From Thermodesulfobacteriota bacterium (GTDB taxonomy: Bacteria > Desulfobacterota_D > UBA1144 > Nemesobacterales > JAJCZQ01), in the NCBI GenBank assembly GCA_965215275.1, contig OZ244044.1, positions 1,440,001 to 1,504,000 of the forward strand: a DNA stretch of 64,000 nt, in the 5' to 3' direction. Below the pieces are notes generated by a model. That model searched no databases. It was not told where the DNA came from and saw only the letters and a list, made by a program, of their open reading frames with translations. Position 1 is the first letter of the stretch. Each line of letters begins with the position of its first letter. A program made the translations under genes and the position numbers. Positions 42,225 through 64,000 of the stretch are shown here, one piece after another.

Positions 42225-42234
42225 GAAACAAGTT

Positions 42235-44283: not shown

Positions 44284-44407
44284 CAATGCAGTCTCTTTCC
44301 AGAATGTTGAATTAATTAAGATCTTTCCCATCAAAATATCTGCTGGCTGCTTATGAGAGAAGGAACGGTATCTTTCTGTTAAAGTCCTTTTTTCCTTTGG
44401 TTTATAA

Positions 44408-44689
44408 TTATTTTGCCATCCCGGCATATGCAACCGGTCGGGTGTCTCCGAACGTCTTTACAAGTGTTTCAAGGAATTCTTCGGAATGCTCGGAGCAGAA
44501 AAAATAGGTTAGAACAGTGTTACCGGACTTGGTTACGCTTAATACCTGGTAGTGGCGGCTGCAAAGGTCTTTGTTGCACATTACACATTCTTTTATCGCC
44601 AGTCTTTCTCCTTCAAGAGTACATCTTTCCCCGTCCTCTCCTATGTTGTCACACTGATATACCTCAACGGATATTTTCCTTTTTGACAT
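44408..44689 (-). CDS. Small Cys/His-rich (probable zinc-binding) hypothetical protein
   Basis: CVMCNKDLCSRH and FCSEH; SD-like AGGAGA upstream. Confidence 0.65.
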   Translation of the reverse strand: MSKRKISVEVYQCDNIGEDGERCTLEGERLAIKECVMCNKDLCSRHYQVLSVTKSGNTVLTYFFCSEHSEEFLETLVKTFGDTRPVAYAGMAK

Positions 44690-44742
44690 CTATTCTCTCC
44701 TTATAGTTTTATATACACTCCATTTTTTACATTAATAAGTAT

Positions 44743-44963
44743 AGGAATTATAAAGATTGATTTACAAGAAATAAAATTTTTAATAATAAGCATTAGGAAA
44801 ATCAGAATATCCATAACGGATATAAATCTGTATCGGGTGGAGCAGTTAAAATGGGGAAAAGACTCCCGGTGGGTGCTATGGGTATTTTAAAATCAAAAGA
44901 ACAAGAGGAACTTTGCACTCAGAACGGTAAAGGTATTGTCGTCGGACGATCTTTATAGTTCTC
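44743..44963 (+). mobile_element. 221-bp MITE carrying a TnpB omegaRNA-like scaffold but no ORF
   Basis: Ends AGGAATTATAAAGATTG and (rev. comp.) GAGAACTATAAAGATCG; degenerate TSD ATAAGTAT/ACAAGCAT; blocks 20/24 and 29/32 identical to the tnpB 3' end. Confidence 0.8.
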
Positions 44964-45100
44964 ACAAGCATATAAGATTGACGGCGATATGATCAGTCTG
45001 AATAACAGCGGTATTTAACTGATTTGCAATCCAACGAGATTTAGTAGACAGTATTACCCGCACAAATTATATTTTGTAAAATTTATTAAGCTATATAAGA

Positions 45101-46069: not shown

Positions 46070-46561
46070 ACTCATTTGACGGGTTTTAACGGTTGCGTTC
46101 CTGATGCTGTAAACTTAACACAGCAGGGAAGTTATCAGCGATTTTACCTGCCTGTTTCTTATAGACGTTGCCATCTGAATACCATCTGTTGTGAAGATTG
46201 ATTTTTCAGAAGTCGTACCGCTTGGTGTAGCAGAGAGGTTCTTGTTTCTATTAAAGGGAATTATATTTATACACGCTTGACATTCGTTCATAATACAAAG
46301 TAAAATGAAAGGGTTATGAGTATGAACGTATCTTTTAGAGTAATACGCCTTTTTAATGATAGTGAAAGTAAATCTTTCAAAGTGAAATACAGTTTAACTT
46401 ACCTTTTATTATAAACATGCATAGATATTGTTCATACTTGACATTACGGCGGAACGGAAGTAAAATATCGGCATCATGAAAAATCCAAACGTAAAAAAGC
46501 GTAGTTCTATTACCCCCCCCCGTGTATACCCGACCTTTCAGCTGTATACGGGTATCCTGCA

Positions 46562-49500
46562 ATGACAATGCTTAAGTTCATATCCCCCCCCCCGTCTAAG
46601 TCCATACTTCCCCTTGTCCTTTTCCTTCTGTGCGTAATCACCGTGGTTGCAAGTGGACAGGGCAGTGAAAAGGACCCGTTCTCCGAATGCAGGGGTATCA
46701 GTGCAGACGCGGAAGATCCGCTGTACGGATGTCAGTGGCATCTGAGGAACACTGGACAGCTTAGTTATTCCGGAAAGAGGACAACTGCGGGAGAGGATAT
46801 AAACGTGGAGGGAGTGTGGAACGACGGGATATCCGGTGCCGGGATCAATATAGCAGTGGCAGGTGACGGCGTCGACCTTTCCCATGAGGACCTTTCTGCG
46901 AACGTCCGTTCCGGACCGAACCACAGTTTTTCTGGAAAAAACAATTCCGGAAAGAACAGTTTTGAGAAAAACAATTCAGAAAGCGGTGATCTTTCCGATA
47001 GTTCATCCCTTACCGGAACGCGAGCAGCAGGAGTAATAGCAGCAACTGGATATAACGGACTGGGAGTAAGAGGAGTTGCACCTGGTGCTAGTATATACAG
47101 TAATGAGTTAACAGAAGATCTCAGTGAAACAGAAGCAATGGTGCGTAATAAAGAAATAACTGCAGTATCCGTTAACGACCGGGGATCTGAGGAGGGAGTT
47201 TTATTACAGGGGGCTTCGGCTGAGTGGGAAGAGGGAGTGGAAGAGGGTATAAGGGAAGGGTTTTACGGCAGGGGAATATTTTACGTCCTGGGAGCAGGGG
47301 ACGGACATGAGAGCGGAGATCAGGCTAATTTTTCTGAATATTCCAACTATTACGGTGTAACGGCGGTATGTTCAACTGACGGCTTTGGAAAGAAGAGTAT
47401 ATTTTCAGAAGAGGGAGTAAATCTCTGGGTATGTGCACCTGGTTCTGATATTGTGACCACTGATAACGACGACGGCTACGCCGTGGCTTCCGGAACATTT
47501 CTTTCAGCTTCACAGGTTGGAGGAGTGGCAGCACTGCTGAGAGAAATAAATGGAAACCTGAGCTGGAGGGATATAAAGCTTATACTTGCGGGTTCGGCAC
47601 GGCAGAACGATCTTTCTGACATGAGCTGGGAGACAGGAGCATTTAAATACGGTTCTGATACTGAAAGATATAATTATAACCCTAAGTATGGTTTTGGTGT
47701 GGTAGACGCGGAGGCGGCCGCAGAGCTTGCCGGAAGCTGGAAAGGAGTGGGAGAAATGAGGACCGTTACAGCTTCCTCGGATAATGAACTGACGATCCCT
47801 GATGGAGAAGGAGAGGCGGACGGGGTCCTTACCTCCAGACTTATGATTTCGGACCTGGAGGAAATATTTACGGAGTTCGTTGAGGTAGAACTCGTTCTCT
47901 CGTGTGACTGCCTGCAGGACCTCAATATACGGATAACCTCTCCTTCCGGGACAGTATCGGAACTTGTGCGGGAGTCTGCCAGTGAGTTTGTAAGGGGATC
48001 TTCGAATGAAGAAAACGACTGCGTCAGTTACCTGGGGAAAAAACATCGTTTCGGTTCGGCAAGACACCTCGGGGAAGACCCTTCCGGAGAATGGACCCTT
48101 AAGATATATAATACTGCTTCCGGAGATGAAGAAGATACAGAAAATACCGTTACCCTGCACTCATGGAGCATCAGGGTATACGGGCACGGGAAGGGGGATA
48201 CTTTAACGGACTTTGGCGGGGAGATCACTGCCAAGGCTTTAACTTTGGGTAATGTTCCTGGTGGTAGGCTGACCTGGACGCAACATAAGCTGGTAAACGC
48301 AAGGTTATTCGAGGCAGCCGGAGGCAGGCCGCCGTATACTTACAGTTTAGCTCCTTTACCTCCTGGATTGAATTTTAACGGAACCACCAGAATTATAAAC
48401 GGGAGACCGACCGCTGCAGGTGACACCGACGTTCAGTATACGGCAAGAGACGCAAATAACGATACGGCACGGAGTGACTTCGTTATAAGGATAACGGCGA
48501 ACGCCGCGCCGGTTTTTGGCAGCAAGACGGTTGCTGCTCAGGTGTACACGGCAAGGAAAGCAATAGAACCATTGGAACTTCCCGAGGCAACGGGAGGGGA
48601 TGGAACCTTGACTTACAATATAAGTGGTAACGTCAGGGGTATAGGGTTGAACTTTAACCGTAACACAAGGATACTGAGCGGAATGCCCACCAGTGTTACG
48701 CCTGGTATTACAGCCGTTTATACCGCCACTGACGCAGATGGAGATACTGCCGAACTGAGGTTCAATATACGGGTAAGACATCAGAACGACATACCGACCT
48801 TTGGCAGTCAGACGGTAGATGATCAGAATTGGGTTAACGGCAGTGCAGTAAGGCTAACGCTGCCTCGTGCAAGAAACGGGAACGGAACGTTAATTTACAG
48901 TTTAGGGCTTGCCGTTAACATGAATGCATTACTTGCCGGACTGGATTTTAACAGAAACACCAGAGTGTTAAGCGGAACGCTCAGGATACCCCCGGCGGCA
49001 ATACCTCCTGCTGGGATTACACACAGATATACGGTAACGGACAGTGATAACGATACTCATGAAAGTGATTCTGACAGTTTGACCTTCGGGATCACTGTAT
49101 CAGCGGACGCAATGCCGACCTTTAGCAGTGAGACGATAGATGATAAGGAATACATAGCAGGAAGTCAGATAAAGCCGGTAACGCTGCCAGTGGCAACATC
49201 GGGGAATACTCCGTTAACCTACGGTATAACCCCTGCTTTGCCTGATGGACTGGACTTTGATCCTGCTACCCGGGTGCTGAGCGGAACACCGACCACTGCG
49301 ATGTCTCAGACTACCTATACATATACAGTAACGGACGTAGATGACGACCCGGCTGAGTTAACGTTTGATATCACTGTATCAGCGGACGCAATGCCGACCT
49401 TCGGCGGTGCGACGATAGAAGACAGGACGACCGTTAACGGCGTTACGGCAGTAATGGAAACACTGCCTCTTGCAACAGGAGGGAACGGAACGCTGACTTA

Positions 49501-50140
49501 CAGTTTAACTGATGCCGGTTCAAATGCTTTGAATTTATTTGCCGGACTGGACTTTGATGAAAACACCCGGGTGCTGAGCGGAACACCCGATATCGGTTCA
49601 GCGTTCCTTGATCTGCTTCCCGTAACCGAGACCTATACGTGGATGGTAGCGGACGAAGATGAAGACATGGACGAGTTGACGTTCAGTATAATTATAGAAG
49701 CAGACAGCGAACCTGACCTCAGCGGTGAGACGATAGATGATCAGGTGTACACGGGGACCCCTGTAACTCTTCCTGAGGCAACGGGAGGGAACCCGCCGTT
49801 AAGATACAGTATAATGCCTCGTTTACCAGATGGATTGAGTTTTGATCCTGCTACCAGAAGGATAAGCGGGACACCGACTGCTGCAGCACCTGAGAATACT
49901 TACACGTACACGGTAACGGACAGCAATGACGACGTGGACGTGTTGACTTTCAGGCTCAGTGCAGTTCCGCCACGAGGACCGATGACGTCAGATACCGGTT
50001 CAGGCGGAGGTGGAGGAGGATGTGCCGTCTCGGATCAGAGCAGCGTTGCTTCTGATATCTTTGGAGCAGTGGCATTTCTGATGCTCATACCCGTGTCAGT
50101 ATTTATCAGAAGGAGAAGAAGACCTCATATAAAGACATAG
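46562..50140 (+). CDS. Exported S8/kexin-like pseudo-protease with P-domain, 6 putative Ig-like (He_PIG-type) repeats and anchor (paralog B)
   Basis: Triad positions read AGDG, TGT, GTFL; repeats of the LPDGLDFDPATRVLSGTPT type; GGGGGCAVSDQ tail. Confidence 0.87.
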   Translation: MTMLKFISPPPSKSILPLVLFLLCVITVVASGQGSEKDPFSECRGISADAEDPLYGCQWHLRNTGQLSYSGKRTTAGEDINVEGVWNDGISGAGINIAVAGDGVDLSHEDLSANVRSGPNHSFSGKNNSGKNSFEKNNSESGDLSDSSSLTGTRAAGVIAATGYNGLGVRGVAPGASIYSNELTEDLSETEAMVRNKEITAVSVNDRGSEEGVLLQGASAEWEEGVEEGIREGFYGRGIFYVLGAGDGHESGDQANFSEYSNYYGVTAVCSTDGFGKKSIFSEEGVNLWVCAPGSDIVTTDNDDGYAVASGTFLSASQVGGVAALLREINGNLSWRDIKLILAGSARQNDLSDMSWETGAFKYGSDTERYNYNPKYGFGVVDAEAAAELAGSWKGVGEMRTVTASSDNELTIPDGEGEADGVLTSRLMISDLEEIFTEFVEVELVLSCDCLQDLNIRITSPSGTVSELVRESASEFVRGSSNEENDCVSYLGKKHRFGSARHLGEDPSGEWTLKIYNTASGDEEDTENTVTLHSWSIRVYGHGKGDTLTDFGGEITAKALTLGNVPGGRLTWTQHKLVNARLFEAAGGRPPYTYSLAPLPPGLNFNGTTRIINGRPTAAGDTDVQYTARDANNDTARSDFVIRITANAAPVFGSKTVAAQVYTARKAIEPLELPEATGGDGTLTYNISGNVRGIGLNFNRNTRILSGMPTSVTPGITAVYTATDADGDTAELRFNIRVRHQNDIPTFGSQTVDDQNWVNGSAVRLTLPRARNGNGTLIYSLGLAVNMNALLAGLDFNRNTRVLSGTLRIPPAAIPPAGITHRYTVTDSDNDTHESDSDSLTFGITVSADAMPTFSSETIDDKEYIAGSQIKPVTLPVATSGNTPLTYGITPALPDGLDFDPATRVLSGTPTTAMSQTTYTYTVTDVDDDPAELTFDITVSADAMPTFGGATIEDRTTVNGVTAVMETLPLATGGNGTLTYSLTDAGSNALNLFAGLDFDENTRVLSGTPDIGSAFLDLLPVTETYTWMVADEDEDMDELTFSIIIEADSEPDLSGETIDDQVYTGTPVTLPEATGGNPPLRYSIMPRLPDGLSFDPATRRISGTPTAAAPENTYTYTVTDSNDDVDVLTFRLSAVPPRGPMTSDTGSGGGGGGCAVSDQSSVASDIFGAVAFLMLIPVSVFIRRRRRPHIKT

Positions 50141-50200
50141 TAATGTGGTCCTTTAAAGAGCATTTCTGAGAGAGAATTGGAGTCTGCTGCTAATAAAAAA

Positions 50201-50608
50201 GGGGGCTATATACAATGTTGCCCAAATTGTATATAATGGTGACAAGAGATTAAAACATAAGAACTTAACAAGATGAACAATCCTTCTACCCCCCCCCATC
50301 AAATACGCTGTTTTATGGTGATTGTTTAGATGTAATACAACAATGGTCAGAGGGTTTTGTTGACCTGTGCTACCTTGACCCACCGTTTAACTCTAAGACA
50401 ACTTACAATATCCTATTTGGGGAAAAAAGTAACAATAGAACTCAAGCCGTTGCTGTTAAAGATACATGGTCTTGGGACGATAAAGCACTTGAACGAGTAA
50501 GTAAGATAAAAAAAGCCGTAGGTCATGGTGCTCATCAGTCTATAACAGGATTACATTCAAAAAAGAATTGATGCTTTTTTATTTTGGGCAACATTGTATA
50601 TAGTCCCC
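50201..50608. mobile_element. TIR-bounded element carrying a DNA methyltransferase fragment
   Basis: GGGGGCTATATACAATGTTGCCCAAA (50201-26) vs 50583-50608 reverse complement GGGGACTATATACAATGTTGCCCAAA (25/26); no direct TSD. Confidence 0.75.
50273..50571 (+). pseudogene. Truncated N6/N4 DNA methyltransferase, out of frame at a C9 tract
   Basis: From 50302: NTLFYGDCLDVIQQWSEGFVDLCYLDPPFNSKTTYNILF...DTWSW; ATG 50273 needs +1 nt in C9 (50289-97); stops after about 90 aa. Confidence 0.82.
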
Positions 50609-50762
50609 TTTCTTTATTAAAGGGGATTTTGTCGTTAGATCTGTACTATAACTACTCTCTTGGTTGTGAAAACTCTAACTTATCCCCGTTAGAAGCGTTG
50701 TATTTGCCACGGGATCAGCGGTGGGTGCAGCCTTTTAAATGATCGTTAATAAATAGTTTCTC

Positions 50763-52211
50763 TTACTTTACCTTCCATACGGTTCTTCCAGGCTTGTCTT
50801 CAAGGATTATGCCTTTTTTATGCAGCTCGTTTCTTATCTGATCGGCTTTGTCCCATTTCTTCTCAGACCTTGCGTTGTTCCTTTTCTTAATAAGGTCTTC
50901 TATCTCTTCCGGGGTTATATCAACTGGTTTTTTGGAAGATCTTTTACTTTCCAGGTACTCATCGGGTGTTTTTTCAAGTATTCCCAGCACGTTTGCAAAT
51001 TTATTGATCTCCTTTAACGATTCACCAAGGGTTTTAGTCCATCCATGGCTATCAATGGATTTATTTATCGTTCTTATAAGCTCGAACATATTGCCTATTG
51101 CATTGGCTGTATTAAAATCATCGCACATTGCCTTATGCCATTTATTTCTGAACTTCTCGAGGTTTTCTTCCAGCTCCGGGTCATATCTGGATGGACTGGA
51201 AGCATCTTTGATCTCATAAGCTCTTTTGAGAGTTGTATAGATCCTCTCTATCGAGGCCTCGGTGTCATCCATGACCTGCTCGGAGAAATCAACTGGATTT
51301 TGATAGTGATGCGAGAGAAAGAAAAGCCTGATCGATTCCGGACTCCATTTTTTCACGGCATTTTGAATGGTAAAGAAATTCCCAAGGGATTTTGACATCT
51401 TTTTACTGTCGATCTGAATAAGTCCATTATGTAACCAGTACCTGGCAAAAGGCTTGCCACTTGCCGCTTCGGACTGAGCAATTTCATTTTCATGATGAGG
51501 AAATATAAGATCTTTGCCTCCTCCGTGTATCTCAAAACTATCTCCAAGGTATTCCATGCTCATGGCTGAACACTCAATGTGCCATCCAGGTCTTCCTTCG
51601 CCCCAGGGACTTGACCATGAAGGTTCACCTTCTTTTGCACCTTTCCAAAGTGCAAAATCAAGTGGATCTTCTTTTTTTTCATTAATATCAATACGCACGC
51701 CCTCAAGCATATTATCAGCGGACCTTTTAGAGAGCTTCCCATATTCCTTGAACTTTCTCACTGAGAAAAAAACGTCGTTACCTGAAACGTAGGCTTGTCC
51801 TTTATTGATTATCTTCTTTATAATTTCTATTATCTTGTCAATGTGCTCCGTTACTTTTGGTTCTACGTCAGGCGTCTGAACTCCAATTGCGGCCATATCC
51901 TGTCTGTATTCGCTTATATACCTTTCAGAGATCTTTTCACAGGATACTCCAAGTTCATTTGCACGCCTGATTATCTTGTCGTCAACGTCAGTGTAGTTTC
52001 TGACAAAAGTAACGTCGTAGCCCACGTATCTCAGAAAACGCTGTATAACGTCAAACGAGACCGCGGACCTTGCGTGTCCGAGATGAGCAGAGTCGTAAAC
52101 CGTCGGTCCGCACGCGTATATTCTTACTTTTTTACCCTTTTGCGGGATCAGCTTTTCTTTTTTCTGCGTAAGGCCGTTATATATGGTTATTTCAGGCAGG
52201 TTTTCATTCAT
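50763..52211 (-). CDS. cysS: Cysteine--tRNA ligase
   Basis: CGPTVY, HLGH, GRPGWHIECS, KMSKS. Confidence 0.97.
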   Translation of the reverse strand: MNENLPEITIYNGLTQKKEKLIPQKGKKVRIYACGPTVYDSAHLGHARSAVSFDVIQRFLRYVGYDVTFVRNYTDVDDKIIRRANELGVSCEKISERYISEYRQDMAAIGVQTPDVEPKVTEHIDKIIEIIKKIINKGQAYVSGNDVFFSVRKFKEYGKLSKRSADNMLEGVRIDINEKKEDPLDFALWKGAKEGEPSWSSPWGEGRPGWHIECSAMSMEYLGDSFEIHGGGKDLIFPHHENEIAQSEAASGKPFARYWLHNGLIQIDSKKMSKSLGNFFTIQNAVKKWSPESIRLFFLSHHYQNPVDFSEQVMDDTEASIERIYTTLKRAYEIKDASSPSRYDPELEENLEKFRNKWHKAMCDDFNTANAIGNMFELIRTINKSIDSHGWTKTLGESLKEINKFANVLGILEKTPDEYLESKRSSKKPVDITPEEIEDLIKKRNNARSEKKWDKADQIRNELHKKGIILEDKPGRTVWKVK

Positions 52212-52382
52212 CGTTTCTGTCTCTGATCTCTAATGATGTTTTCATACTATCTGCTTATGAGTTTTTACAGTATTTCCTTTAGCTTCGCAAGCAGGACCTG
52301 TCGCATTGCCGCCATGGTAACCAGTCTTAACTGTCTTCGGGAAGCACCTTCAACTTAAAAAAGAGGTTCATTTCAGCGGCCG

Positions 52383-53474
52383 TTACATGACTGTAATTGC
52401 CTGGGATTGCCATCCAATAAGCAGTATCCAGTCTGTTTCAAGTTGTGGTCCATTAAGGTCCTGATAAAACGGAAGACCTAACTCCAGGGCGATCCTCTGT
52501 CCTTTCAGGAACTTCGTGTTGCTCCGGTTTATAAAGTTGATGCCGATCAGTCCATCCATCCTGTTCCCACCCTGAAGATCAGGCCGGGCAGTTGGTGCAA
52601 GCATCTGGTTAAGTGCCTCATCTGCACCGTCGATCTCTTGCCATAATTTCCAGTTCAGCCGGAAAGAACCGCTCAGCCAGTAATTAAAGTCGTATGCTGA
52701 CCACGTGGTCAGGTCCAGCCTGTTCCCCAGCTTATAATTACGGTCATTTTCGTTCAGCCTGATAGTTGCTTTTGCCTGTCCTCCCAGGTTCAGGTTCTCC
52801 CATCTCTGATAGTAGGTTATCCCCGGCGTTATATCCCAGGTGCCGGAACCAAGCTGCATAGGGTATGGAAGCTGTGTTCTGTTTGGTCCCGTTGGCGTCG
52901 GAACCGTGTCTTTTTTATCGATTGATCCCGTTGGAAAGCTCATTCCAAAGTTCAGGATAAGGCTTCTTTTACTGCCTTGATCAGTGATCCTGTATAAACC
53001 CTCGAACCTGATATCTCCGATCCCTTCGGAACTGGTTTTAAACTGTCCACCCGTCCTGTTTTTTATATCTATTGATTTTTTCACGTAGGGAACTGAACCC
53101 ATGAGCGTTAACTTATCAGTTAATCCTAACATACCGCCGAACATGTGCATCTGCTCTTTCATCTTGATTGGCGTTGCCATAAAATCTGCAAGTACCTGTT
53201 CATCGGTTATCCCGTCCGTCCCGTTCCTCATTCCTTCCATTGCCATAAACATGTAGCGATAGGAGAACATTAATTCACCTGTCTCGTGCGTGTGTTCTCC
53301 CATTACTCCGATCGGTCCATGGTCGCCTGCCTTAAGTCCGTCTTCAGATCCGGTCCTTGCATCTGCAGATAAGACGGATATTGATGTTATTATTATGATC
53401 AGTGCTGCCGCTGTCAGCAGGTTCTGGAGCACCTTCAGATCTTTACAGGGATAGATGGACCGGGATCTGATCAT
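52383..53474 (-). CDS. Putative outer-membrane beta-barrel transporter with His/Met-rich N-terminus
   Basis: Signal peptide, DHGPIGVMGEHTH, LPYPMQLGSGTWD, amphipathic beta strands. Confidence 0.7.
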   Translation of the reverse strand: MIRSRSIYPCKDLKVLQNLLTAAALIIIITSISVLSADARTGSEDGLKAGDHGPIGVMGEHTHETGELMFSYRYMFMAMEGMRNGTDGITDEQVLADFMATPIKMKEQMHMFGGMLGLTDKLTLMGSVPYVKKSIDIKNRTGGQFKTSSEGIGDIRFEGLYRITDQGSKRSLILNFGMSFPTGSIDKKDTVPTPTGPNRTQLPYPMQLGSGTWDITPGITYYQRWENLNLGGQAKATIRLNENDRNYKLGNRLDLTTWSAYDFNYWLSGSFRLNWKLWQEIDGADEALNQMLAPTARPDLQGGNRMDGLIGINFINRSNTKFLKGQRIALELGLPFYQDLNGPQLETDWILLIGWQSQAITVM

Positions 53475-53544
53475 AGAACTTTCCGGAACGTAACGTCCTT
53501 GTTCCTTATGTTTTTCAAAAGCAGACGTGAACTGTTTACAGGGT

Positions 53545-54297
53545 CTATGTTTTTGTTGTTTTTGTTTTGCAGCGTGCTTTCAGTGATTCTATAAAATTTT
53601 TCTGAACGATCTTGCTTGCCCTTCTGATCGGTTCTAAAACCATACTTTCGTATGCTTCAAGAGCGGTCTTTTCAAGTTTACTGTCCCCTGTTTTTCTGGC
53701 AAGCCGGAGCATGGCGATAGAGTTATGAAAAACCGCCTTGAAAAGGTTTTTGCGAGCTTTATCAAGATCAAGGTCCTCAAGGTTCTTCTGTGCTTCGAGC
53801 GTTGCATTAAATCCCACTCCGCAGAAAAGGGTAATGAACTTTTTTGCCTCTTTTTCCGACATACCTTCCATTAAATAGACAAGCGGGGCTTCCACCACGG
53901 ATTCAAGTTCGTTCTTGCTGCCGGACAGGATCTGTGCCAACTGTTTGATCTTGCCGTCGTCCGAATCGGACAGTATATCTCCAAGTGCGTTCTGCACGTG
54001 CATGAGTGCGAAACTGTCCTTTATCTCGTTAAGGCCAAGACCTTCCGACCTCAGTGCCTTTACCTGAACCAGTTTTTCGATCGTTCTTTCAGGATAGTAC
54101 TCTGTGACGTCTTTTGTACCGGTCTTTGCCTTTTTTATTTTAGGCCTGGGAATCAGTTCAAGCTTTGCATAATTACGTATTATGCGTTCTGGGCTTTTTC
54201 CAAGGTCGATCTTTCTCTCTCTGGACCTCTCTATGAGTTCTTCTATTGTAAGATATTTCACGCGGAAAATGTTACGCTCAAAAAGGGGATATTGCAA
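53545..54297 (-). CDS. MerR-like HTH domain protein
   Basis: RIIRNYAKLELIPRP...YYPE...LRSEGLGLNEIK. Confidence 0.6.
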   Translation of the reverse strand: MQYPLFERNIFRVKYLTIEELIERSRERKIDLGKSPERIIRNYAKLELIPRPKIKKAKTGTKDVTEYYPERTIEKLVQVKALRSEGLGLNEIKDSFALMHVQNALGDILSDSDDGKIKQLAQILSGSKNELESVVEAPLVYLMEGMSEKEAKKFITLFCGVGFNATLEAQKNLEDLDLDKARKNLFKAVFHNSIAMLRLARKTGDSKLEKTALEAYESMVLEPIRRASKIVQKNFIESLKARCKTKTTKT

Positions 54298-54476
54298 CCC
54301 CTTACCCGTATATCTCTTATAATGCGTGGTCTTAACGCCTGTATTTTTTGGGAATTATATATTTAACCAAACAGAAATAAAATATGGACCTTGTATCTTT
54401 ATAGCTGTTAACCTGTTATGAGATATTATTCATCCACTTGACATTCGTTCAGGGTACAAAGTAAAATAACAAAGCT

Positions 54477-56195
54477 ATGAACATCTCATTTAGAATAATA
54501 CCCCCCCCATATAAGTCATTAATATCCTTTCTCCTTCTTCTGTGCCTTGTGTCCATTGAGGCATATGGACAGATCAATAACTGTGACACCAGTACTACCG
54601 GTTTCAATGATCCCTTATACGGCTGTCAGTGGCATCTGAAAAACACGGGACAGCTTGGGGCTGTAACTGCCTCTGGAGAAGATATAAACGTAGAAGGGGT
54701 CTGGGACGATAACAGGTTCGGTGCCGGAATTAACGTGGCGGTGGTGGATGACGGTATGCAGACGGGTCATGAGGACCTTTCTGATAATGTAAATAACAGC
54801 CTTAACCATGATTATTCAGGAGGCAGTGACGTATACGACCCTTCAAAAGCTCGCGGAACGCGTGTATCGGGAGTTATAGCAGCAGCGGGAGATAACGGTA
54901 TTGGAGCAAGAGGAGCGGCACCACGGGCAGGCATCTACAGTTATAACCTGGCCGGTAATTTAAACAGCGCTAACGCAAAGGACGCCATGACCCGTAACAG
55001 AGATACAACGGCTGTATCCGTCAACAACTGGGGACCGAATGACCTGCCTCTTCTCAGGGAGGCTTCATCAGAGTGGGAAGAGGGAGTGGAGACGGGTATA
55101 AGTGAAGGGTTTGGTGGTAAGGGGGTATTTTATGTATGGGCGGCCGGGGACGGAGATAAAAGGGCAGATCAGGCTAATTTTGATGAGTATTCCAACTACT
55201 ACGCAGTAACCACCGTATGTTCGGTGGATGGAGAAGGAAACAAGAGCTCTTTTTCAGAGGAGGGAGTAAATCTGTGGGTATGTGCTCCAGGTGAAGATAT
55301 TACAACTACTGACAATAACGATGGATATATTTTTGATGCGAGTGGAACGGCATATTCAGCAGCGCAGGTTGCAGGTGTGGCGGCACTGATGAGAGAGGTA
55401 AACGGAGACCTTGGCTGGAGGGACATAAAGCTTATACTTGCAGCTTCAGCCCGTAAGAACGACGGTTCCGACACGAACTGGGAGACGGGAGCACGGAAAT
55501 ACGGTTCTGATACAGAGAGTTATAATTACAATCCTAGGTACGGTTTCGGCGTGGCAGATGCCGACGCGGCAGTAAAGCTTGCTGAAAGCTGGACTAACGT
55601 TCCAGGGATGAGAACTCAGACCGTTTCCTCGGGAACTGTTGATATGGAAATCCCCATCCACAGCAATGGAGCAGACGGAGAAGTTACTGCCAGACTGACC
55701 ATACCGGATAATGAGTTTTTTACAGAATTTGTAGAGATAGAACTTGATTCCACTTACGGTTACTTTCCAAGTTTAGCTATACAGATAGCGTCCCCTGACG
55801 GTACTGTGTCTGAACTTACCGAGGAGTATTATGCAGGAGCTTTCTCAATTATAAATACCACTCCACTCACTGCAAGCGACTTTATTTACACCGACAGAAC
55901 TCATCGTTTTGGTTCAGCCAGACACCTTGGAGAAGACCCTGCCGGAGAATGGACCTTGAAGATAACTAACACTGATCTGTTTTCTTCAGGCACAGCAACT
56001 TTACACTCGTGGAGCATTAAAGTCTATGGTCACAGTAAGGAAGATACAGTTAGTGATACGTTTGGAGGAGGATGTGTGCTCTCAGATCAGAACGAAGCTG
56101 TTTCTGATCTGCTCACAGCAGTGGCATCTCTGATGCTTATACCCTTATCAGCAGCGATCAGAAAGAAGGTAAGGTCTCATATAAACACCTGGTAA
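54477..56195 (+). CDS. Exported S8/kexin-like pseudo-protease with P-domain and anchor (paralog C)
   Basis: Very similar to paralog A; RGT, GTAY and AAGD substitutions; GGGC-TM-basic tail. Confidence 0.87.
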   Translation: MNISFRIIPPPYKSLISFLLLLCLVSIEAYGQINNCDTSTTGFNDPLYGCQWHLKNTGQLGAVTASGEDINVEGVWDDNRFGAGINVAVVDDGMQTGHEDLSDNVNNSLNHDYSGGSDVYDPSKARGTRVSGVIAAAGDNGIGARGAAPRAGIYSYNLAGNLNSANAKDAMTRNRDTTAVSVNNWGPNDLPLLREASSEWEEGVETGISEGFGGKGVFYVWAAGDGDKRADQANFDEYSNYYAVTTVCSVDGEGNKSSFSEEGVNLWVCAPGEDITTTDNNDGYIFDASGTAYSAAQVAGVAALMREVNGDLGWRDIKLILAASARKNDGSDTNWETGARKYGSDTESYNYNPRYGFGVADADAAVKLAESWTNVPGMRTQTVSSGTVDMEIPIHSNGADGEVTARLTIPDNEFFTEFVEIELDSTYGYFPSLAIQIASPDGTVSELTEEYYAGAFSIINTTPLTASDFIYTDRTHRFGSARHLGEDPAGEWTLKITNTDLFSSGTATLHSWSIKVYGHSKEDTVSDTFGGGCVLSDQNEAVSDLLTAVASLMLIPLSAAIRKKVRSHINTW

Positions 56196-56305
56196 TTCAC
56201 TTCTTTCCAGGACACTTAATTAACTGAGATCTTTCCCGTCAGATATAACGTTGTTAAGAACATCGTCTTTGTTCATTCAGCATGGCCGTCTGTATAATTT
56301 CTTTT

Positions 56306-59300
56306 GGGAACTATAATAGGAAAGTTGACAAAAATGAGGGTTACCCTGAACGGTTGACAGGCTGTATTTTACCTTTATTATTATCAGTGGGAACTGAATA
56401 CCGTCAATTACAGTGAACGGGATAAAAAAGAGAATGATCCCCTGCGTCCTGAATATCATTGTCATTGCAGGAAAGGAAAGAGAAAGAAATTATACTTGAC
56501 ATTCGTTCATAATACGAAGTAAAATATCAGTGTTATGAAAAATTTCATGAAAAATTCAAACATAAAAACAAAAACACGTAGTTCCATTACCCCCCCCCGT
56601 GTATACCTGACCTTTCAGCCTGGTATAAGTGTTTTTTAAGAACAATGTTTAAGATAATACCCCCCCCATCTAAGTCATTACTAACTTTAGTCTTTATTCT
56701 TCTGTGTATAATGGTAATAGCTGCAAAAGGGCAGAGCAGCCTGGAAGAAACATTATCTGAATGCAGAGGTAACAGTGCAGACGTGGAAGATCCGTTATAC
56801 GGATGTCAGTGGCATCTGAAGAACACGGGGCAGTTTATTTATTCAGGAAAGAGAATAACATCAGGAGAAGATATAAACGTAGAGGGAGTGTGGAACGAAG
56901 ACGTATACGGTTCTGGAATTAACGTAGCAATAGTAAGTGACGGTATCGACCTTTCACATGAGGACCTTTCTGCAAACGTCCGTTCCGGACTGAACTATGA
57001 TCTGTCTGACAGTTCATCTTTTAGTGGGACACGAGCGGCAGGAGTTATTGCAGCAACTGGATATAACGGACTGGGAGTAAGAGGAACAGCACCGGGTGCG
57101 AGTATATACAGTTACAGGTTATCCGGTGATCTCAGTGAAGCGGACGCGGTGGTCCGTAATAAGGAAATAACCGCAGTATCGGTTAACGGCCGGGGATCTG
57201 AGGACGGAGCTTTTTTTCAGGAGGCTTCATCTTCCTGGGAAGAAGGAGTGGAACTTGGAATAAGTAAAGGGTTTTATGGAAAAGGTGTGTTTTACGTCCG
57301 GGGAGCAGGGGACGGGCATGAAAGCGGAGATCAGGCTAATTTTAATGAATATTCCAGCTATTACGGAGTAACAGCCGTTTGTTCAACTGACGGTTATGGA
57401 AAAAAGAGTATTTTTTCAGAAGAGGGAGTAAATCTATGGGTATGTGCACCTGGTTCTGATATTGTAACCACAGATAACAACAACGATTACGTTGTAACTT
57501 CCGGAACATTTCTATCAGCTTCACAGGTCGGAGGAGTGGCAGCACTGCTGAGAGAGATAAACGGAGATCTGAGCTGGAGGGATATAAAGCTTATACTTGC
57601 GGGTTCAGCACGGCAGAACGATATTTTTGACCTTAGCTGGGAGACTGGAGCGGTAAAATACGGTTCTGACGTGGAAAGATATAATTATAATCCTAAGTAT
57701 GGTTTTGGCGTGGTAGACGCAGAAGCAGCTGCAGAACTTGCAGGAAGCTGGAAAGGCGTTGGAGAAATGAGGACCGTTACCGCCTTTTCAGATAATGAGA
57801 TAACAATTCCTTATGGAGAAGGAAATGGAGAAGGAGAGGCAGACGGGGTACTTGTCTCCAGACTTATGATCCCGGACGTGGAGGAAATATTTACGGAATT
57901 CGTTGAAGTTGAACTTGTTCTCTCGTGTGACTGCTTACAGGACCTCAATATAAAGCTAACCTCTCCTTCCGGGACAGTGTCTGAACTTGTAAGGGAGTTT
58001 TCAGGGGAGGAAGAAGACGCTGATATCAGTTACCTGAGAAGAACACATCGTTTCGGGTCGGCAAGACACCTCGGAGAAGACCCTGCCGGAGAATGGAACC
58101 TTAAAATATCCGATACTGCTTCCGGAGATGAAGAAGATACAGAAAACACTGTTACCTTACACTCATGGAGCATTAAGGTATACGGGCATGTTTTTTTACA
58201 GGATTTTGGCAAGGAGATCATTACCAAGGCTTTCAGCTTGGGAAGTATCTCTAATAAAACTTACAGAGAAGGAGTTCAGATAACACCATTAGTGCTGCCT
58301 GAGGCAACTGGAACTAATCTGTCAATTACTTACAGTTTAAGTCCTGCCCCACCTGCCGGATTGACCTTTGACAAAACCACCCGAACGATAAGCGGAACAC
58401 CAACTGCTGTAGGCAGGACAAGGCATAATTATAGGGCAAGCATTCCTGGCCAACAACTCAATAGAAACTTTCATATCACGGTAGAAAATAACCCACCCAC
58501 CTTCGGCAGTGAGACTATCCCAAAGAAGAGATATATTCAAGGGACAAATGTAGGTCTTCCAGTAACGCTGCCTGCTGCTACCGGAGGAAATGGAACTTTA
58601 AATTACAGTTTAACCCCTTCATTACCAACTGGATTGGAATTTAATCCTGCTACCCGAGTGATAAGTGGAACTCCAACTGATATTATACAAACTCCTGGTC
58701 GACTTTATACATATAAGGTAACGGACAGTGATGGAGATATAGATAGTTTGAGTTTCCGTATTGAAATATTCAGGGACCAAACGCCAACTTTTAGTGGTGT
58801 GATGGTAGATGATCAGGTGTATACAGCAGGGGTTCAGATAACACCATTAGAGCTGCCTAGGTCAATATTAGGGAATAGCCCATCACACAGTATTACTCCT
58901 GAATTACCTGATGGATTGATTATTGAGACAGAGACGGGCGGTGACGGTGGAATGAGAAGAATAATCATCATACGCGGAACACCAACTACAGCAATGCCTG
59001 AGACTGAGTATACATGGAGAGTAAGAGACACAGATGGAGATACGGACGAGTTAACGTTCAGTATTACTGTATTAGCAGAACCAAACACAGAACCAACCTT
59101 CGGCAGTGAAACTATAGATAACAAGGTGTATATAAACGGAGAGGCAGTAATGGAAACACTGCCTGAAGCAACGTCAGGGAATGCACCATTAACTTACAGT
59201 TTAACTAATATTGGTTCAACTGCTTTGACTTTAGCCGTGGACTTTGATAAGAACACCAGAGTGTTAAGTGGAACACCCAATGTTAATGTACACCTACTTC

Positions 59301-60591
59301 CTATAACTCGTGCATATACATATAAAGTAACAGACAATGATGGAGATACAGCAGAGATAACGTTCAGTATAACAATAGAAGAAGACAGCGAGCCGGACTT
59401 CAGCGTGACGACGATAGAAGATCAGGTGTACATGGGGAGATCAATAAGGTTGCCGGTAGCAACGGGAGGGAATGCACCGTTAGTATACAGTATAACGCCT
59501 CCCTTACCTCCTGGGTTGAGATTGGACAGAGACACAGGGGTAATAAGCGGGACGCCCGCGAGTGCGTCGTCTGAGAGGACCTACACGTACACGGTAATGG
59601 ACAGGGACGGAGACATTAAAGAGTTGACCTTCAGGTTCAGTGCAGAGGTTCCTTCTACTCCAGGACCAGGACCAACAAGAACGTCAGGTAGTGATCCAGG
59701 CGGAGGTGGAGGAGGATGTGCCGTCTCGGATCAGAGCAGCGCCGTTTCTGATATTCCTGGAGTAATGGCATGTCTGATACTTATACCCGTGTCGGTATTG
59801 ATCAGAAGGAAGGGAAGAGCTCGGATAAGGACCTGGCAATGAGTTCCTTTCAGGGACGTTCATGAGAGAGGACCGCGTAATGGTCCTCCCATGTACCCGT
59901 CCGCTTAAGGTAAAGGCAGCGTTACCGCGCACTGGACCGTCCCTGTATTCTGATGAGACGACGGGAGAAGCAGAGGAAGGCATCAGCACGGGTGATCTTC
60001 CGGACGTTCCGTTTACTGAGGTATACCGTTCCCCGTTATAATCCCGTTGTCAGCGTTCCCGGCAGGATACCTTTACAGGGAAAGGGAGCAGGTAGATATA
60101 AAGGCAGGTACACGTCCGGGGATTAGTCCTGAAGGTCTGAAAAGGTTCCGTATCGTGTAATTTCAGCCACGGGGAGGCGTTCACGGTTCCTGGAACGGGA
60201 GGACTTCAACGTCATGGACACGCGGACTTGCCGCTTCGGGGAAAGCGGGGACCCTGACCGAAGAAGGCAGGGAAGTGATCAGGGTTATACTGACCATGCC
60301 GACCGGTCTGAGACAGATAAGGATAAGGTCAGTAAAGGAAAAATAAAAGGTAAACCTCGGGTGAAACCTGCCGCCGCTGATCATAAAGGAAAAACAACGG
60401 GCAATGGATAGATCATCAAGGATGTTTTTAAAAACGGGATAAATCCCGCATAAACGACCTGAAAAAAACAACTAAATAAGAACTGAACAAAAGGTTTAAA
60501 TTGGCAGCAGGTCCTAAAGGAGATCATTTTATAAAAGAAGTTAATGATCAAAGAAAATTATGGGACCTGTCAACTTTCCTTTATAGTTCCC
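56306..60591. mobile_element. 4286-bp transposase-less cargo element carrying paralog D
   Basis: Left GGGAACTATAATAGGAAAGTTGACA, right rev. comp. GGGAACTATAAAGGAAAGTTGACA; perfect TSD TTTCTTTT at 56298-56305 and 60592-60599. Confidence 0.88.
56645..59842 (+). CDS. Exported S8/kexin-like pseudo-protease with P-domain, 5 putative Ig-like repeats and anchor (paralog D)
   Basis: Triad positions read VSDG, SGT, GTFL; close paralog of B. Confidence 0.87.
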   Translation: MFKIIPPPSKSLLTLVFILLCIMVIAAKGQSSLEETLSECRGNSADVEDPLYGCQWHLKNTGQFIYSGKRITSGEDINVEGVWNEDVYGSGINVAIVSDGIDLSHEDLSANVRSGLNYDLSDSSSFSGTRAAGVIAATGYNGLGVRGTAPGASIYSYRLSGDLSEADAVVRNKEITAVSVNGRGSEDGAFFQEASSSWEEGVELGISKGFYGKGVFYVRGAGDGHESGDQANFNEYSSYYGVTAVCSTDGYGKKSIFSEEGVNLWVCAPGSDIVTTDNNNDYVVTSGTFLSASQVGGVAALLREINGDLSWRDIKLILAGSARQNDIFDLSWETGAVKYGSDVERYNYNPKYGFGVVDAEAAAELAGSWKGVGEMRTVTAFSDNEITIPYGEGNGEGEADGVLVSRLMIPDVEEIFTEFVEVELVLSCDCLQDLNIKLTSPSGTVSELVREFSGEEEDADISYLRRTHRFGSARHLGEDPAGEWNLKISDTASGDEEDTENTVTLHSWSIKVYGHVFLQDFGKEIITKAFSLGSISNKTYREGVQITPLVLPEATGTNLSITYSLSPAPPAGLTFDKTTRTISGTPTAVGRTRHNYRASIPGQQLNRNFHITVENNPPTFGSETIPKKRYIQGTNVGLPVTLPAATGGNGTLNYSLTPSLPTGLEFNPATRVISGTPTDIIQTPGRLYTYKVTDSDGDIDSLSFRIEIFRDQTPTFSGVMVDDQVYTAGVQITPLELPRSILGNSPSHSITPELPDGLIIETETGGDGGMRRIIIIRGTPTTAMPETEYTWRVRDTDGDTDELTFSITVLAEPNTEPTFGSETIDNKVYINGEAVMETLPEATSGNAPLTYSLTNIGSTALTLAVDFDKNTRVLSGTPNVNVHLLPITRAYTYKVTDNDGDTAEITFSITIEEDSEPDFSVTTIEDQVYMGRSIRLPVATGGNAPLVYSITPPLPPGLRLDRDTGVISGTPASASSERTYTYTVMDRDGDIKELTFRFSAEVPSTPGPGPTRTSGSDPGGGGGGCAVSDQSSAVSDIPGVMACLILIPVSVLIRRKGRARIRTWQ

Positions 60592-60636
60592 TTTCTTTTT
60601 TGATTTTTCTTTATGGTGTGTTCATAATTATCCGAT

Positions 60637-61395
60637 ATGGCTATGTCCACGCTTATCGTTTATGAACCTCTGGATAGTTTTGGAGAGCAAAGTGAGTACT
60701 GGCTTGAATATTCCAGGTTTTACGAGACGTACTGGTGCGGTCCGACCTCTCCTTTCGGGGTATGGTTCGGCAATGAGTATAAGAATTTCAGAGAATCCCT
60801 GTCCAGGCACATGAACCTTGATGATGCTGATATAAAGGACTGCTTCTTTCTGAAGAAGGGAGAGAAAGGTAAAAAGGAGTATTTTATTGCTCCGCTTAAT
60901 AACTCTGAAAACGTTTTTTCATCTGATAATTCGATCCCGCATGAATGGTTTGCAATGTTTGATAAATGTCAGAGAAAGAACTTTTATACCCACTGGGGGT
61001 TCAATACGATCCACTATGAAGGGTCTCTCCATGATGCCAGGGAAAAGCTCAGGGAAAAAAGAGAAATTATCAAGGATGTATCCTCCTCAGGGATGGATAT
61101 TCCGTTCGCCGGATACCTGGATTATTTAAGTGGAGGGATCGATAATATAATAAGCTGGCTTGACGGGTTTAAAATGGGCGGTTTTGTCATTTTGAACTAC
61201 GGAGAGATATGCACGCATATTCATATTTCCACTTTGCACAATGAGAACAGCGTTGAAGAGATATCCAGCTTTTTGAAACTGCTGAAGGAGAGAAAGGTAG
61301 AGGAAGCGGATTCGGTCTTAAGATTATTTTTTAAGAAGTGGGAAGACATAACGCTTAAGTGTAAAGGTGGAGCGGACAGCGGCCTGTTGCAGTAG
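60637..61395 (+). CDS. Hypothetical protein
   Basis: 252-aa ORF with no recognised motif. Confidence 0.6.
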   Translation: MAMSTLIVYEPLDSFGEQSEYWLEYSRFYETYWCGPTSPFGVWFGNEYKNFRESLSRHMNLDDADIKDCFFLKKGEKGKKEYFIAPLNNSENVFSSDNSIPHEWFAMFDKCQRKNFYTHWGFNTIHYEGSLHDAREKLREKREIIKDVSSSGMDIPFAGYLDYLSGGIDNIISWLDGFKMGGFVILNYGEICTHIHISTLHNENSVEEISSFLKLLKERKVEEADSVLRLFFKKWEDITLKCKGGADSGLLQ

Positions 61396-61573
61396 GTGCC
61401 GAAACGGAACTGCGGTGTTCTGATCCCGTGCTGTGCCTGGTCCTGTATGAGGACTTCGTTACCGGCTGTTCCCTGAACGACCCCAGCCTGTAGAGCGGCT
61501 TTTTAAAATTACGGTCTTTTGCAGCAGTCTGGTATTTATACGGTTCTTTCAGGACCATCTTTTATAATACTTT

Positions 61574-62245
61574 ATGAGATCACAGAAGTTTGACGACGGA
61601 AGTATTGATAAGGTTTTAAGTATTCTGAACAAAGAGGTCAGAAAATGGGACGTTCCCGTTATCAATCTTGTAGCTGCTTCCACGGGAGACCCTTTTAAAG
61701 TACTGATATCCACGCTTCTCAGCTTAAGAACGAAAGATGAAACGACTGCCGCGGCTTCAAGAAAACTCTTTAAACGGGCGTCTACTCCGGAAGAGATATT
61801 AAAGCTGGGGGAAGAGAAATTAGCCAGGCTTATTTATCCGGTCGGTTTTTACAACGTGAAGGCAAGAAGGATAATGGATATTTCCAGGAAACTGATAGAA
61901 GAATACGGTTCGGTCGTGCCAGACGACCTTGATGAACTTTTGAAATTTAACGGGGTTGGAAGAAAGACCGCCAATCTTGTTATTACCTCTGGATTTAACA
62001 AGCCCGGGGTCTGTGTTGATATACACGTTCACAGAATATCGAACAGACTTGGATATATAAAGACCAAAAACCCCGAGCAGACCGAATCGGAACTCAGAAA
62101 AAAGCTGCCCAGGGAGCACTGGATCGATTATAACTATTTGCTTGTTTCCTTCGGACAGCATCTGTGCAGACCGGTATCACCTTTCTGCAGCACATGTCCG
62201 GTAGAGCGTTACTGTATGCGAGTGGGCGTTAAGAGGAGCAGATAG
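61574..62245 (+). CDS. nth: Endonuclease III
   Basis: Hh[30 protein letters not shown]...C 4Fe-4S motif. Confidence 0.93.
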
Positions 62246-62367
62246 CAATTATTTGACTATACTCACACAATAAATATAATCACATTACTGATGTAAGGTC
62301 AGCAGCGTCGCAGCGGTCTTGGTGAAACGGTACATAGCTTGTTGATACAAATGTCGCGGAGTGAATT

Positions 62368-62871
62368 TTGGCAGAAGGTTTATTCTTTTATATATTTGCA
62401 GCACTGACGGTAATAGGGTCCGTAGTGGTTGTAATGCATAAAAATCCGGTCGCCAGTGCGATCGCCATGGTGTTGACATTTTTCTTTACCGCAGCTCTTT
62501 TTATTCTTTTAAGGGCCCAGTTCATAGCCGTAATTCAGGTGCTTGTATACGCCGGCGCAATAATAGTTCTTTTCCTGTTCACCGTGATGTTCCTGAACAT
62601 TAAAGAGAAATCCCTTCAGTTTGACGCTGGCGGTATTGCGAAAAAGATCACGTTTTTGAGCTTAATAATGGTCGTTGTGGGATATTTCGCGTCCAGGCTC
62701 ATTACTGACACGGTTACGGTATCAGAAGCTTCAGAGGGTTTCGGGACCGCAGAAAGTGTTGGAAATATACTGTTTACGGATTACCTGCTTCCATTTGAAC
62801 TGACCTCACTGCTGATAATAGCTGCCATTATAGGGGTCGTATCAATTGCCAGGAGCAGTAAAGATCTATAA
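62368..62871 (+). CDS. nuoJ: NADH-quinone oxidoreductase subunit J
   Basis: QVLVYAGAIIVLFLF, YLLPFELTSLL. Confidence 0.93.
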   Translation: MAEGLFFYIFAALTVIGSVVVVMHKNPVASAIAMVLTFFFTAALFILLRAQFIAVIQVLVYAGAIIVLFLFTVMFLNIKEKSLQFDAGGIAKKITFLSLIMVVVGYFASRLITDTVTVSEASEGFGTAESVGNILFTDYLLPFELTSLLIIAAIIGVVSIARSSKDL

Positions 62872-63176
62872 TGGAAGTGACGCTTACTCATTATATTGTT
62901 CTTAGTGCCGTTCTGTTCGTGATAGGTGCGTACGGCGTAGTTACAAGGAGAAATCTTATCATTGTACTGATGTCCCTGGAACTGATGCTCAATGCCTGTA
63001 ATATCTCTTTTATATCCTTCTCTTACTATTTTACCGATCTGACGGGTCATGTTTTTATGATCATGGCAATAACGGTCGCAGCGGCAGAAGTTGCCCTAGG
63101 ACTTGCTTTTGTTGTTCTTATTTATAAGCACAAAGCCAGCCTGGACATTGACGTCTTAAAACTTTTAAAAGGATAG
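62871..63176 (+). CDS. nuoK: NADH-quinone oxidoreductase subunit K
   Basis: RRNLIIVLMSLELMLNA, VAAAEVALGLA. Confidence 0.95.
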   Translation: MEVTLTHYIVLSAVLFVIGAYGVVTRRNLIIVLMSLELMLNACNISFISFSYYFTDLTGHVFMIMAITVAAAEVALGLAFVVLIYKHKASLDIDVLKLLKG

Positions 63177-63188
63177 AAAATATAGAAT

Positions 63189-64000
63189 ATGCTGTTGACC
63201 GTTGTTATTCTTCCGTTAATAGGTGCTGCGCTGAACGGTTTGCTTTTCGCTACTCCACTGAAGGACGTTCTGTTTAAGAACGAGGATGAAAAGTGGAGAA
63301 AAGGCGTCGTTGGAACGATCGGATGTACGGTCGTGTTTCTCTCTGCAGTGTTGTCCACCGTTCTGTTCTTCGATCTTCTTGATATGGAGCCGGAACAAAG
63401 GCAGATCATAAATGACGTCTTTGTCTGGATCTCATCCGGAGAGCTCAACGTCAGATTTTCGCTGCTTTTTGATCCTTTGGCATCGGTCATGGTACTTGTG
63501 GTTACCTGGGTGGGTTTTCTGATACACCTTTATTCAGTTGGCTATATGCAGCATGATGATTCCTTTGCAAGGTACTTCTGTCTTCTCAATCTGTTTATCT
63601 TTTTTATGCTCATGCTCGTGCTTGGAGATAATTTTCCCGTTATGTTCGTTGGATGGGAAGGTGTAGGGCTTACTTCATATCTGCTGATAGGGTTTTGGTT
63701 TGAGGACCATAACAAGGCTTACGCTGGCAGAAAGGCCTTTATAGTGAACAGGATAGGGGACTTTGGTTTCATTCTGGGAATATTTTTGATCTTTGTGACC
63801 TTCGGTTCCGTAAACTATCAGGAGGTGTTTGCAAAGCTTGCCGACCCGCAGCTAAGCGGGGCAATATCTGAGGCAACGATCACCGTGATCGCTCTCCTGC
63901 TGTTCGTGGGTGCCGTGGGAAAATCAGCACAGCTTCCGCTTTACGTGTGGCTTCCTGATGCCATGGCTGGACCCACTGCCGTAAGTGCCTTGATACATGC
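63189..64000 (+). CDS. nuoL: NADH-quinone oxidoreductase subunit L, 3' end outside the window
   Basis: IHLYSVGYM, GWEGVG, KAFIVNRIGD, GKSAQLPLYVWLPDAMAGPT. Confidence 0.93.
   Translation, partial: MLLTVVILPLIGAALNGLLFATPLKDVLFKNEDEKWRKGVVGTIGCTVVFLSAVLSTVLFFDLLDMEPEQRQIINDVFVWISSGELNVRFSLLFDPLASVMVLVVTWVGFLIHLYSVGYMQHDDSFARYFCLLNLFIFFMLMLVLGDNFPVMFVGWEGVGLTSYLLIGFWFEDHNKAYAGRKAFIVNRIGDFGFILGIFLIFVTFGSVNYQEVFAKLADPQLSGAISEATITVIALLLFVGAVGKSAQLPLYVWLPDAMAGPTAVSALIH

Follow-up and report, generated by a model that had tools for sequence, protein, structure and literature searches.

Introduction

Mobile insertion cassettes (MICs) are known from MIC231 of Bacillus cereus and from the cassettes that carry transcription activator-like effector (TALE) genes in Xanthomonas (Ferreira et al. 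2015, PMC4337579; definition also in PMC3129680). In the cited passages of these papers a MIC is a passenger between inverted repeats of insertion sequence (IS) type, without a transposase, flanked by a target site duplication (TSD) and in need of a cognate transposase acting in trans. According to the same passages, 55 TALE genes of Xanthomonas (45%) lie in MICs and 20 more adjoin solo ends (PMC4337579), and these cassettes are therefore a precedent for the dispersal of a repeat-rich paralog family. Here we describe a 4.3-kb element of the same plan in a 64,000-nt stretch of the chromosome of a Thermodesulfobacteriota bacterium (assembly GCA_965215275.1, contig OZ244044.1, positions 1,440,001 to 1,504,000; hereafter the window), the cargo of which, paralog D, belongs to a dispersed family of 57 predicted surface proteins. 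The genome is a single contig of 1.99 Mb from one assembly, and coordinates refer to the window unless given as genome positions.

Set against the MICs of Xanthomonas and Bacillus as treated in those passages, which have Tn3-type ends (5-bp TSD) or IS231 ends, the element has IS1595 ends with an 8-bp TSD. It further departs from known MICs, within the same limits, in its cargo, a predicted surface pseudo-protease with 57 members in a 2-Mb chromosome, most of them with a poly-C switch, and in being nested, with newer ends around an older cassette end. The 5'-GG termini, terminal inverted repeats (TIRs) of about 24 nt, 8-bp TSD and cognate transposase with Zn_ribbon_IS1595 and DDE_Tnp_IS1595 domains agree with the IS1595 family traits listed in the cited part of PMC8101967; the 4.3-kb unit, unlike the transporter IS (tIS) of that family, has no transposase. 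DDE-transposase-associated TnpB systems (Altae-Tran et al. 2023, PMC10691335) find a likeness here in tnpB genes that lie between inverted repeats of the same subfamily; such systems are not part of the 4.3-kb element, and IS1595 is absent from the main text of that paper.

The cargo family invites comparison with the opa genes of Neisseria, up to 11 in number, in which CTCTT pentamers in the region coding for the leader peptide set the frame (PMC3960869, as excerpted). Both consist of dispersed surface-protein paralogs, with a repeat tract in the leader that sets the frame and with diversity from recombination within the genome. They differ in size (57 genes against up to 11), in the repeat (poly-C against CTCTT) and in the protein (S8, P-domain and Ig repeats against a beta-barrel); moreover, switching was measured for opa and is deduced here, and the cited parts of PMC3960869 do not describe opa as cassette-borne. 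We found no description of a cassette-spread, poly-C-switched surface family in the open PMC and bioRxiv literature, and what is probably new is that IS1595-type cassette ends surround many members of a surface-protein family that mobility would have spread.

Results

The 4.3-kb element and its ends

The transposase-less element occupies positions 56306-60591 (4286 nt) between two copies of TTTCTTTT that match at 8/8 positions, and is built as follows:

56298-56305: left TSD, TTTCTTTT
56306-56330, plus strand: left TIR, 25 nt, with one A more than the right TIR and than the second copy of the element
56331-56534, plus strand: upstream region, common to three paralogs without this TIR (genome 34715, 397716 and 409118)
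56354-56381 and 56496-56525: two sigma70-like sites within the upstream region, 11/12 each
56535-56639, plus strand: leader open reading frame (ORF) of 34 codons, with poly-C tract 1 (9 C, 56590-56598)
56645-59842, plus strand: cargo gene, paralog D, 1065 aa
59845-60260: non-coding sequence that recurs at 95.7% identity 3' of another paralog (genome 408590-409007)
60008-60033, minus strand: nested motif 194 nt 3' of the gene, likely an older, decayed IS1595-type right end of the cargo
60260-60366, plus strand: 107 nt captured from a chromosomal gene for a pyridine nucleotide-disulphide oxidoreductase (3' end of the gene; 88% identity to genome 155754-155861), with the frame broken
60385-60591: cognate IS1595 right end, 207 nt, 84% identical to genome 1100815-1101021 and to MITEs (miniature inverted-repeat transposable elements), ending in the right TIR
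60568-60591: right TIR, 24 nt, the same as the left TIR save for the extra A of the latter
60592-60599: right TSD, TTTCTTTT, within which (at 60597) similarity to a relative of the same genus (G001) restarts

A preliminary description of the window had claimed TIRs identical except for one extra base and an exact TTTCTTTT TSD around promoter, leader ORF and paralog D, with which coordinates and sequence agree. It had also read the whole as a transposase-less cargo unit of the IS1595 family, and this was borne out by the lack of a transposase inside and by a second copy with its own TSD and flanks.

All 28 genome-wide matches to IS1595 transposases lie outside the element, which is transposase-free inside and accordingly not a tIS, a type of element that has its own transposase plus a passenger. 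Three traits of a MIC, on the other hand, were found: the passenger lies between IS-type inverted repeats, neither copy has a transposase of its own, and there are a TSD and the trace of transposition as a unit. Assignment of the ends to IS1595 is given by GG-terminal TIRs that match those of an element with Zn_ribbon_IS1595 and DDE_Tnp_IS1595 domains, and by the 8-bp TSD. Rough analytic estimates put the chance of the TTTCTTTT TSD alone at 1.4e-4 and that of such a TIR pair in 64 kb at <1e-3, and a TIR profile scored 32 genome sites above 25 bits vs 0 in each of two shuffles. Because these estimates are very low and the profile is silent in the shuffles, chance is excluded for the TIR/TSD pattern. 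We have very little doubt that the element is a real IS1595-type MIC; this is a kind of element already known, and a single IS1595 cassette is ordinary.

A second copy and the locus in relatives

The element recurs at genome 1028600-1033127, where similarity ends at the TIRs and the flanks are unrelated to those of the window copy. Identity between the two copies is 96.9% (354 nt) at one end and 98.8% (754 nt) at the other; they are built alike throughout, with no transposase, and the second is bordered by a TSD of its own (CATCTTTT/CATCTTTC, 7/8). The element has moved as a whole unit at least once. Since both ends are present in the second copy, we reject the idea that two independent IS ends formed a composite in situ. 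The TIR lesions lie in the left TIR of the window copy and in the right TIR of the second copy, and as these are opposite TIRs, the common ancestor of both copies was likely a unit in which neither end was damaged.

At the same locus in G001 (about 80% identity) and in a member of the same family (G002), a merR-like gene and a 252-aa gene are about 85 nt apart, and the 4.3-kb element and paralog B are both absent.

Cassette ends around other members of the family

Older, similar ends around many family members, paralog B included, had been overlooked in the preliminary description, as had the loss of the catalytic triad from the cargo and the 57-member poly-C-gated family itself. The neighbour of the 4.3-kb element is a case in point:

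54350-56302, plus strand: older cassette with paralog B (gene 54477-56195), left end at 54350, decayed right end at about 56277-56302

The 4.3-kb element sits at the tip of this decayed right end. A loose regular expression for the ends had a background of 49-65% and was uninformative, and a profile trained only on the ends of transposase and tnpB elements, with an orientation control, was therefore run on all 57 paralog loci. In a stricter first run, both ends scored at 16/57 paralog loci vs 5.6% of 657 control ORFs, and three of the 16, the focal copies not among them, were TSD-positive vs 0.37 in shuffled data (p=0.0026). Profile matches at paralog flanks pointed inward at 44/114 and outward at 12/114 flanks of the same DNA, although related loci are not independent in such motif counts. 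A TSD of at least 7/8 was found at 7/23 two-ended loci, each with a different sequence (shuffled mean 0.42, maximum 5 in 20,000), a count lessened by the fact that two of the seven are the focal copies, both of which the null includes; the other five have TSDs of 7-8/8. The sequence shared between paralog flanks stopped at most 12 nt from the motif at 20/27 upstream flanks (null 2.1) and at 18/36 downstream flanks (null 2.8).

The comparison with G001, which covered 141 of its ~190 contigs, spanned 16/57 paralog loci, and at 11/16 the gap in G001 is <200 nt where this genome has 2.3-6.4 kb. Similarity to G001 restarts directly after the end at locus 1505534 and within 5-9 nt of it at locus 1336549. 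For a subset of the paralogs spread as cassettes is well supported, and from these it is extrapolated to the rest.

Two further loci were observed. A truncated paralog without S8 lies between ends at genome 627140-628720, with a 7/8 TSD and a near-empty locus in G001. At genome 1532715-1540173 an end pair with the exact TSD TAAAGATT surrounds not only a paralog but also an IS1595 transporter element that is intact, and the whole may be an autonomous composite with a paralog as cargo.

Related ends and the candidate transposase

An IS at genome 1100815-1102101 has the TIR of the 4.3-kb element at its ends, and its IS1595 transposase is broken into a Zn-ribbon and a DDE part that lie in two different frames. 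This IS has no TSD, its frameshifted transposase is the sole close one in the genome, and several MITEs of ~420 nt are internal deletions of it. A TIR scan of species genomes gave 20 loci, and same-TIR elements were found in records labelled Dadabacteria, Poribacteria, Gammaproteobacteria and others. At five of the 20 (L170, L171, L175, L177 and L181, counted once per element) the TIR bounds a transposase ORF of 308-324 aa plus passengers, with an 8/8 TSD; at L173 and L183 the TSD is likewise 8/8 but no transposase ORF is intact, L179 and L188 have mismatched flanks, and eight further loci show a single end. With 94/96 support, the broken local transposase groups with four of these five, all but that of L181. 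An IS1595 DDE transposase acting in trans is the likely mover of the unit.

Several IS1595 end subfamilies, common only in their outer ~12 nt, coexist in this genome. The one found at the 4.3-kb element also bounds tnpB elements, the ~420-nt MITEs and a MITE-bounded composite. The tnpB element of the window (1464-2782, tnpB by Pfam) has its own TSD, TTAAATAA, and ends related to those of the 4.3-kb element (about 19/24 by inspection), two tnpB copies elsewhere in the genome match the right TIR at 23/24, and about nine tnpB-like units, as judged by ORF starts, have IS1595-type TIRs and exact TSDs genome-wide. The end motif GGnnatTAT is ISNwi-like, and the ends may belong to that subgroup.

Several proposals of the preliminary description stand in part. 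Sharing of ends with the tnpB element extends to a subfamily that bounds tnpB elements, MITEs and a composite. A single end family acting as a modular gene shuttle is matched by the cargoes found between such TIR pairs (tnpB, an ABC ATPase/TPR composite and paralogs), except that there are several end subfamilies and the methylase-like fragment counted among the cargo belongs to another. A same-TIR IS1595 clade that could supply the cognate transposase exists and is intact in other genomes, but frameshifted here. As for a recent insertion, the perfect TSD fits it, whereas the TIR lesion in each copy, the mosaic middles of the cargo and the frameshifted close transposase do not.

The MITE-bounded composite (L202, genome 17470-21955) is 4486 nt long and consists of two same-TIR MITEs with an exact TSD, TAATATAA, around an ABC ATPase gene and two TPR-repeat genes, with poly-C tracts of 9 and 10 at genome 19539 and 20737. 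At about 50204-50610 of the window, a small element with TIRs of another IS1595 subfamily contains a methylase-like ORF that is truncated and has a tract of 9 C behind its start, and no TSD was seen on inspection; we presume the ORF to be methylase-like from its DPPF motif.

Internal structure of the element

The upstream region that the element shares with other paralogs begins about 25-37 nt inside its left end, and similarity to paralog 34715 stops about 12 nt before the outer end of the nested motif at 60008-60033. Since an Rfam scan of positions 50000-64000 gave nothing at E<=1, the 750-nt 3' region has no known RNA. The simplest reading of this arrangement would be that newer IS ends recaptured an older cassette plus bystander DNA.

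At genome 397716-409007 two divergent paralogs have near-identical inverted 3' halves, and inversion between them would exchange their 5' parts and unite the flanks seen in the 4.3-kb element. This is a possible source locus or invertible switch.

The cargo protein

Paralog D has the Pfam domains Peptidase_S8 (aa 89-326) and P-domain (P_proprotein, aa 419-511), in this order, and He_PIG (Ig) repeats. Poly-C tract 2 (8 C at 56660-56667, in frame) lies in the 5' part of the gene, which encodes a predicted signal peptide, and the C-terminal tail (Gly-rich-Cys, hydrophobic, basic) is predicted to be a membrane tail. In the second copy, 10 C in poly-C tract 1 join the leader in frame to the main gene. 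The best sequence matches in the PDB are kexin and furin, over both domains, with E about 1e-31. The succession of S8 and P-domain is that of the kexin/furin subtilases, but the triad residues are replaced, the Asp/His/Ser positions reading Ser/Ser/Phe, and this loss led us to reject an active protease. To judge only from domain content and purifying selection, the product is likely a non-catalytic, variable surface binder or coat component and not a protease.

At E<=1e-40 the S8 region of the cargo had no match in a set of 100 further genomes from the order, and tblastn gave none in the 141 G001 contigs; G001 and another genome, G019, match the cargo only in the Ig repeats.

Switching, selection and gene conversion in the family

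The S8 domain is present in 57 paralogs; with 62 loci, the family takes up 9.3% of the genome. All three triad residues are kept in only 6/54 alignable paralogs. A 5' poly-C tract was found in 48/55 scored paralogs, 37 of them out of frame and 11 in frame, numbers to be read with reserve, as the frame calls were automatic (nearest ATG within 45 nt) and the tract lengths come from one assembly, with homopolymer errors possible. Paralog 5' ends account for 80 of the 139 genomic C/G tracts of at least 8. The full-length body is retained in 33/37 out-of-frame genes and dN/dS is 0.27-0.39 in four triad-less paralog groups, which together fit reversible switching of genes under selection. The family is probably switchable by its poly-C frame tract, the length of which (tract 1) differs between the two copies of the element. 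Two hallmarks of an opa-like family were found, namely a 5' coding repeat that sets the frame in dispersed paralogs and recombination among paralogs.

Within the second copy, 1209 nt of the S8 region are 99.75% identical to locus 1744619, outside the element, and the right end is 99.5% identical to the window copy. The cargo middles of the two copies form a mosaic; another paralog outmatches the second copy in 19/21 windows of the cargo gene, and dS between the two cargoes is 0.15 although the ends differ by 1-3%. From these patterns, gene conversion among the paralogs is clear.

The six triad-intact paralogs (genome 424994, 519831, 528267, 603592, 665703 and 1361102) form one tree group; 5/6 have no 5' poly-C tract, which nearly all triad-less paralogs have. 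In a post hoc comparison, 4/4 paralogs at window 42223-59842 are in frame at the poly-C vs 7/44 elsewhere, a difference that may reflect chance, an assembly effect or a genuine expression cluster.

Other features of the window

Positions 3400-4780 and 5158-9337 hold a CRISPR-like array (36-nt repeat, ~66-nt period) beside a 1063-aa ORF, and an inverted partial copy of the repeat lies at 9314-9337; array and ORF presumably resemble a type II system with an anti-repeat. Three tandem paralogous repeats of ~900 nt, 66-87% alike, occupy 20012-22750.

Discussion

Taken as a whole, we consider it probable that a transposase-less cassette with IS1595 ends and an 8-bp TSD was mobilised in trans and that its family spread as cassettes. 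The wider proposal, toward which the evidence leans somewhat, is that an opa-like repertoire of 57 genes, kexin-derived, mostly pseudo-proteases and amounting to about 9% of the genome, arose by repeated transposition of IS1595 cassettes, every copy bringing a promoter and a poly-C switch of its own, with gene conversion acting on the repertoire afterwards. The 4.3-kb element would then represent the most recent round, with an older cassette recaptured by a newer end subfamily. The ends of the IS at genome 1100815-1102101 would first have come to enclose an older cassette-borne paralog, complete with promoter and 3' flank, plus a fragment of a chromosomal gene. Copying of this unit to two sites, one of them the tip of the paralog B cassette, would have followed at a time when an intact transposase was present, and each copy would afterwards have acquired a lesion in one TIR. 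The cargo would meanwhile be altered by gene conversion with the paralog pool and turned on and off by slippage of the poly-C tract just 3' of the start codon.

Besides the reservations attached to the counts above, several points weigh against this account. No intact close transposase was found in this assembly, so that mobilisation in trans is what we infer and the unit may now be stranded; the nearest intact transposase of the genome is 46% identical to that of L171 and has other inner TIRs. The mapping of TIR to transposase is not strict, because L181 combines the same TIR with a transposase of another clade. The insert is absent from the relatives, but an empty site with just one TTTCTTTT was not observed; the nearest relative is ~80% identical and also without paralog B, and three distant loci (54-57%), with no conspecific strain, were all that the downstream 252-aa gene retrieved in a metagenome scan. 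Among the two-ended loci, 16/23 have a TSD below 7/8, and several loci spanned by G001 break 14-110 nt or >1 kb from the motif. Surface location and binding of paralog D are predicted, and its tail scores below the Synerg-CTERM (TIGR04564) cut-off (14.9 bits vs 22.5, E=0.02).

The most serious alternative is that the 4.3-kb unit is a true MIC and an exception, the family having grown mainly by recombination duplication, with motifs inherited from a few early cassettes or left as unrelated IS scars. A detectable end pair is missing at 34/57 paralog loci, some paralog clusters resemble recombination products, among them those with identical inverted halves at genome 397-436 kb, gene conversion is extensive, and with 28 transposase matches the genome is rich in IS1595 ends. 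This alternative nevertheless has to contend with five other loci that have their own, differing TSDs of 7-8/8, with shared flanks that end at the motif on both sides, with the single dispersal of most paralogs and with the near-empty state of 11/16 loci spanned by G001, and we regard it as unlikely.

Considerably less probable is that the unit goes back to a transporter IS or composite, since decayed, which travelled with its own transposase, lost it later and was never mobilised in trans. Same-TIR elements elsewhere do carry a transposase plus passengers, and the unit retains 207 nt of the IS right end; both copies, however, are equally transposase-free over their whole length and no transposase remnant lies inside the unit. 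As the two have the same transposase-free build, loss would have preceded copying, unless both were deleted identically. A chance match or an assembly artefact, conceivable with a single assembly and a repeat-rich region, is hardly credible for copies that differ throughout their middle and have unrelated flanks and different TSDs, with flank synteny to G001 and G002 intact and a very low chance estimate.

The preferred reading, in which the family spread as IS1595-ended cassettes mobilised in trans, bears on the origin of dispersed, individually switched surface-protein families, which is usually ascribed to unspecified duplication. The footprints described here (ends, site-specific TSDs and the empty loci of a relative) suggest non-autonomous transposition as the copying engine behind about 9% of a small genome. 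The ends are defined, same-clade transposases are intact in other genomes and empty sites are predicted by the dozen, so that the family would also have value as a test system. If the reading is true, the precedent of the TALE MICs would extend to a phase-variable surface repertoire and to IS1595.

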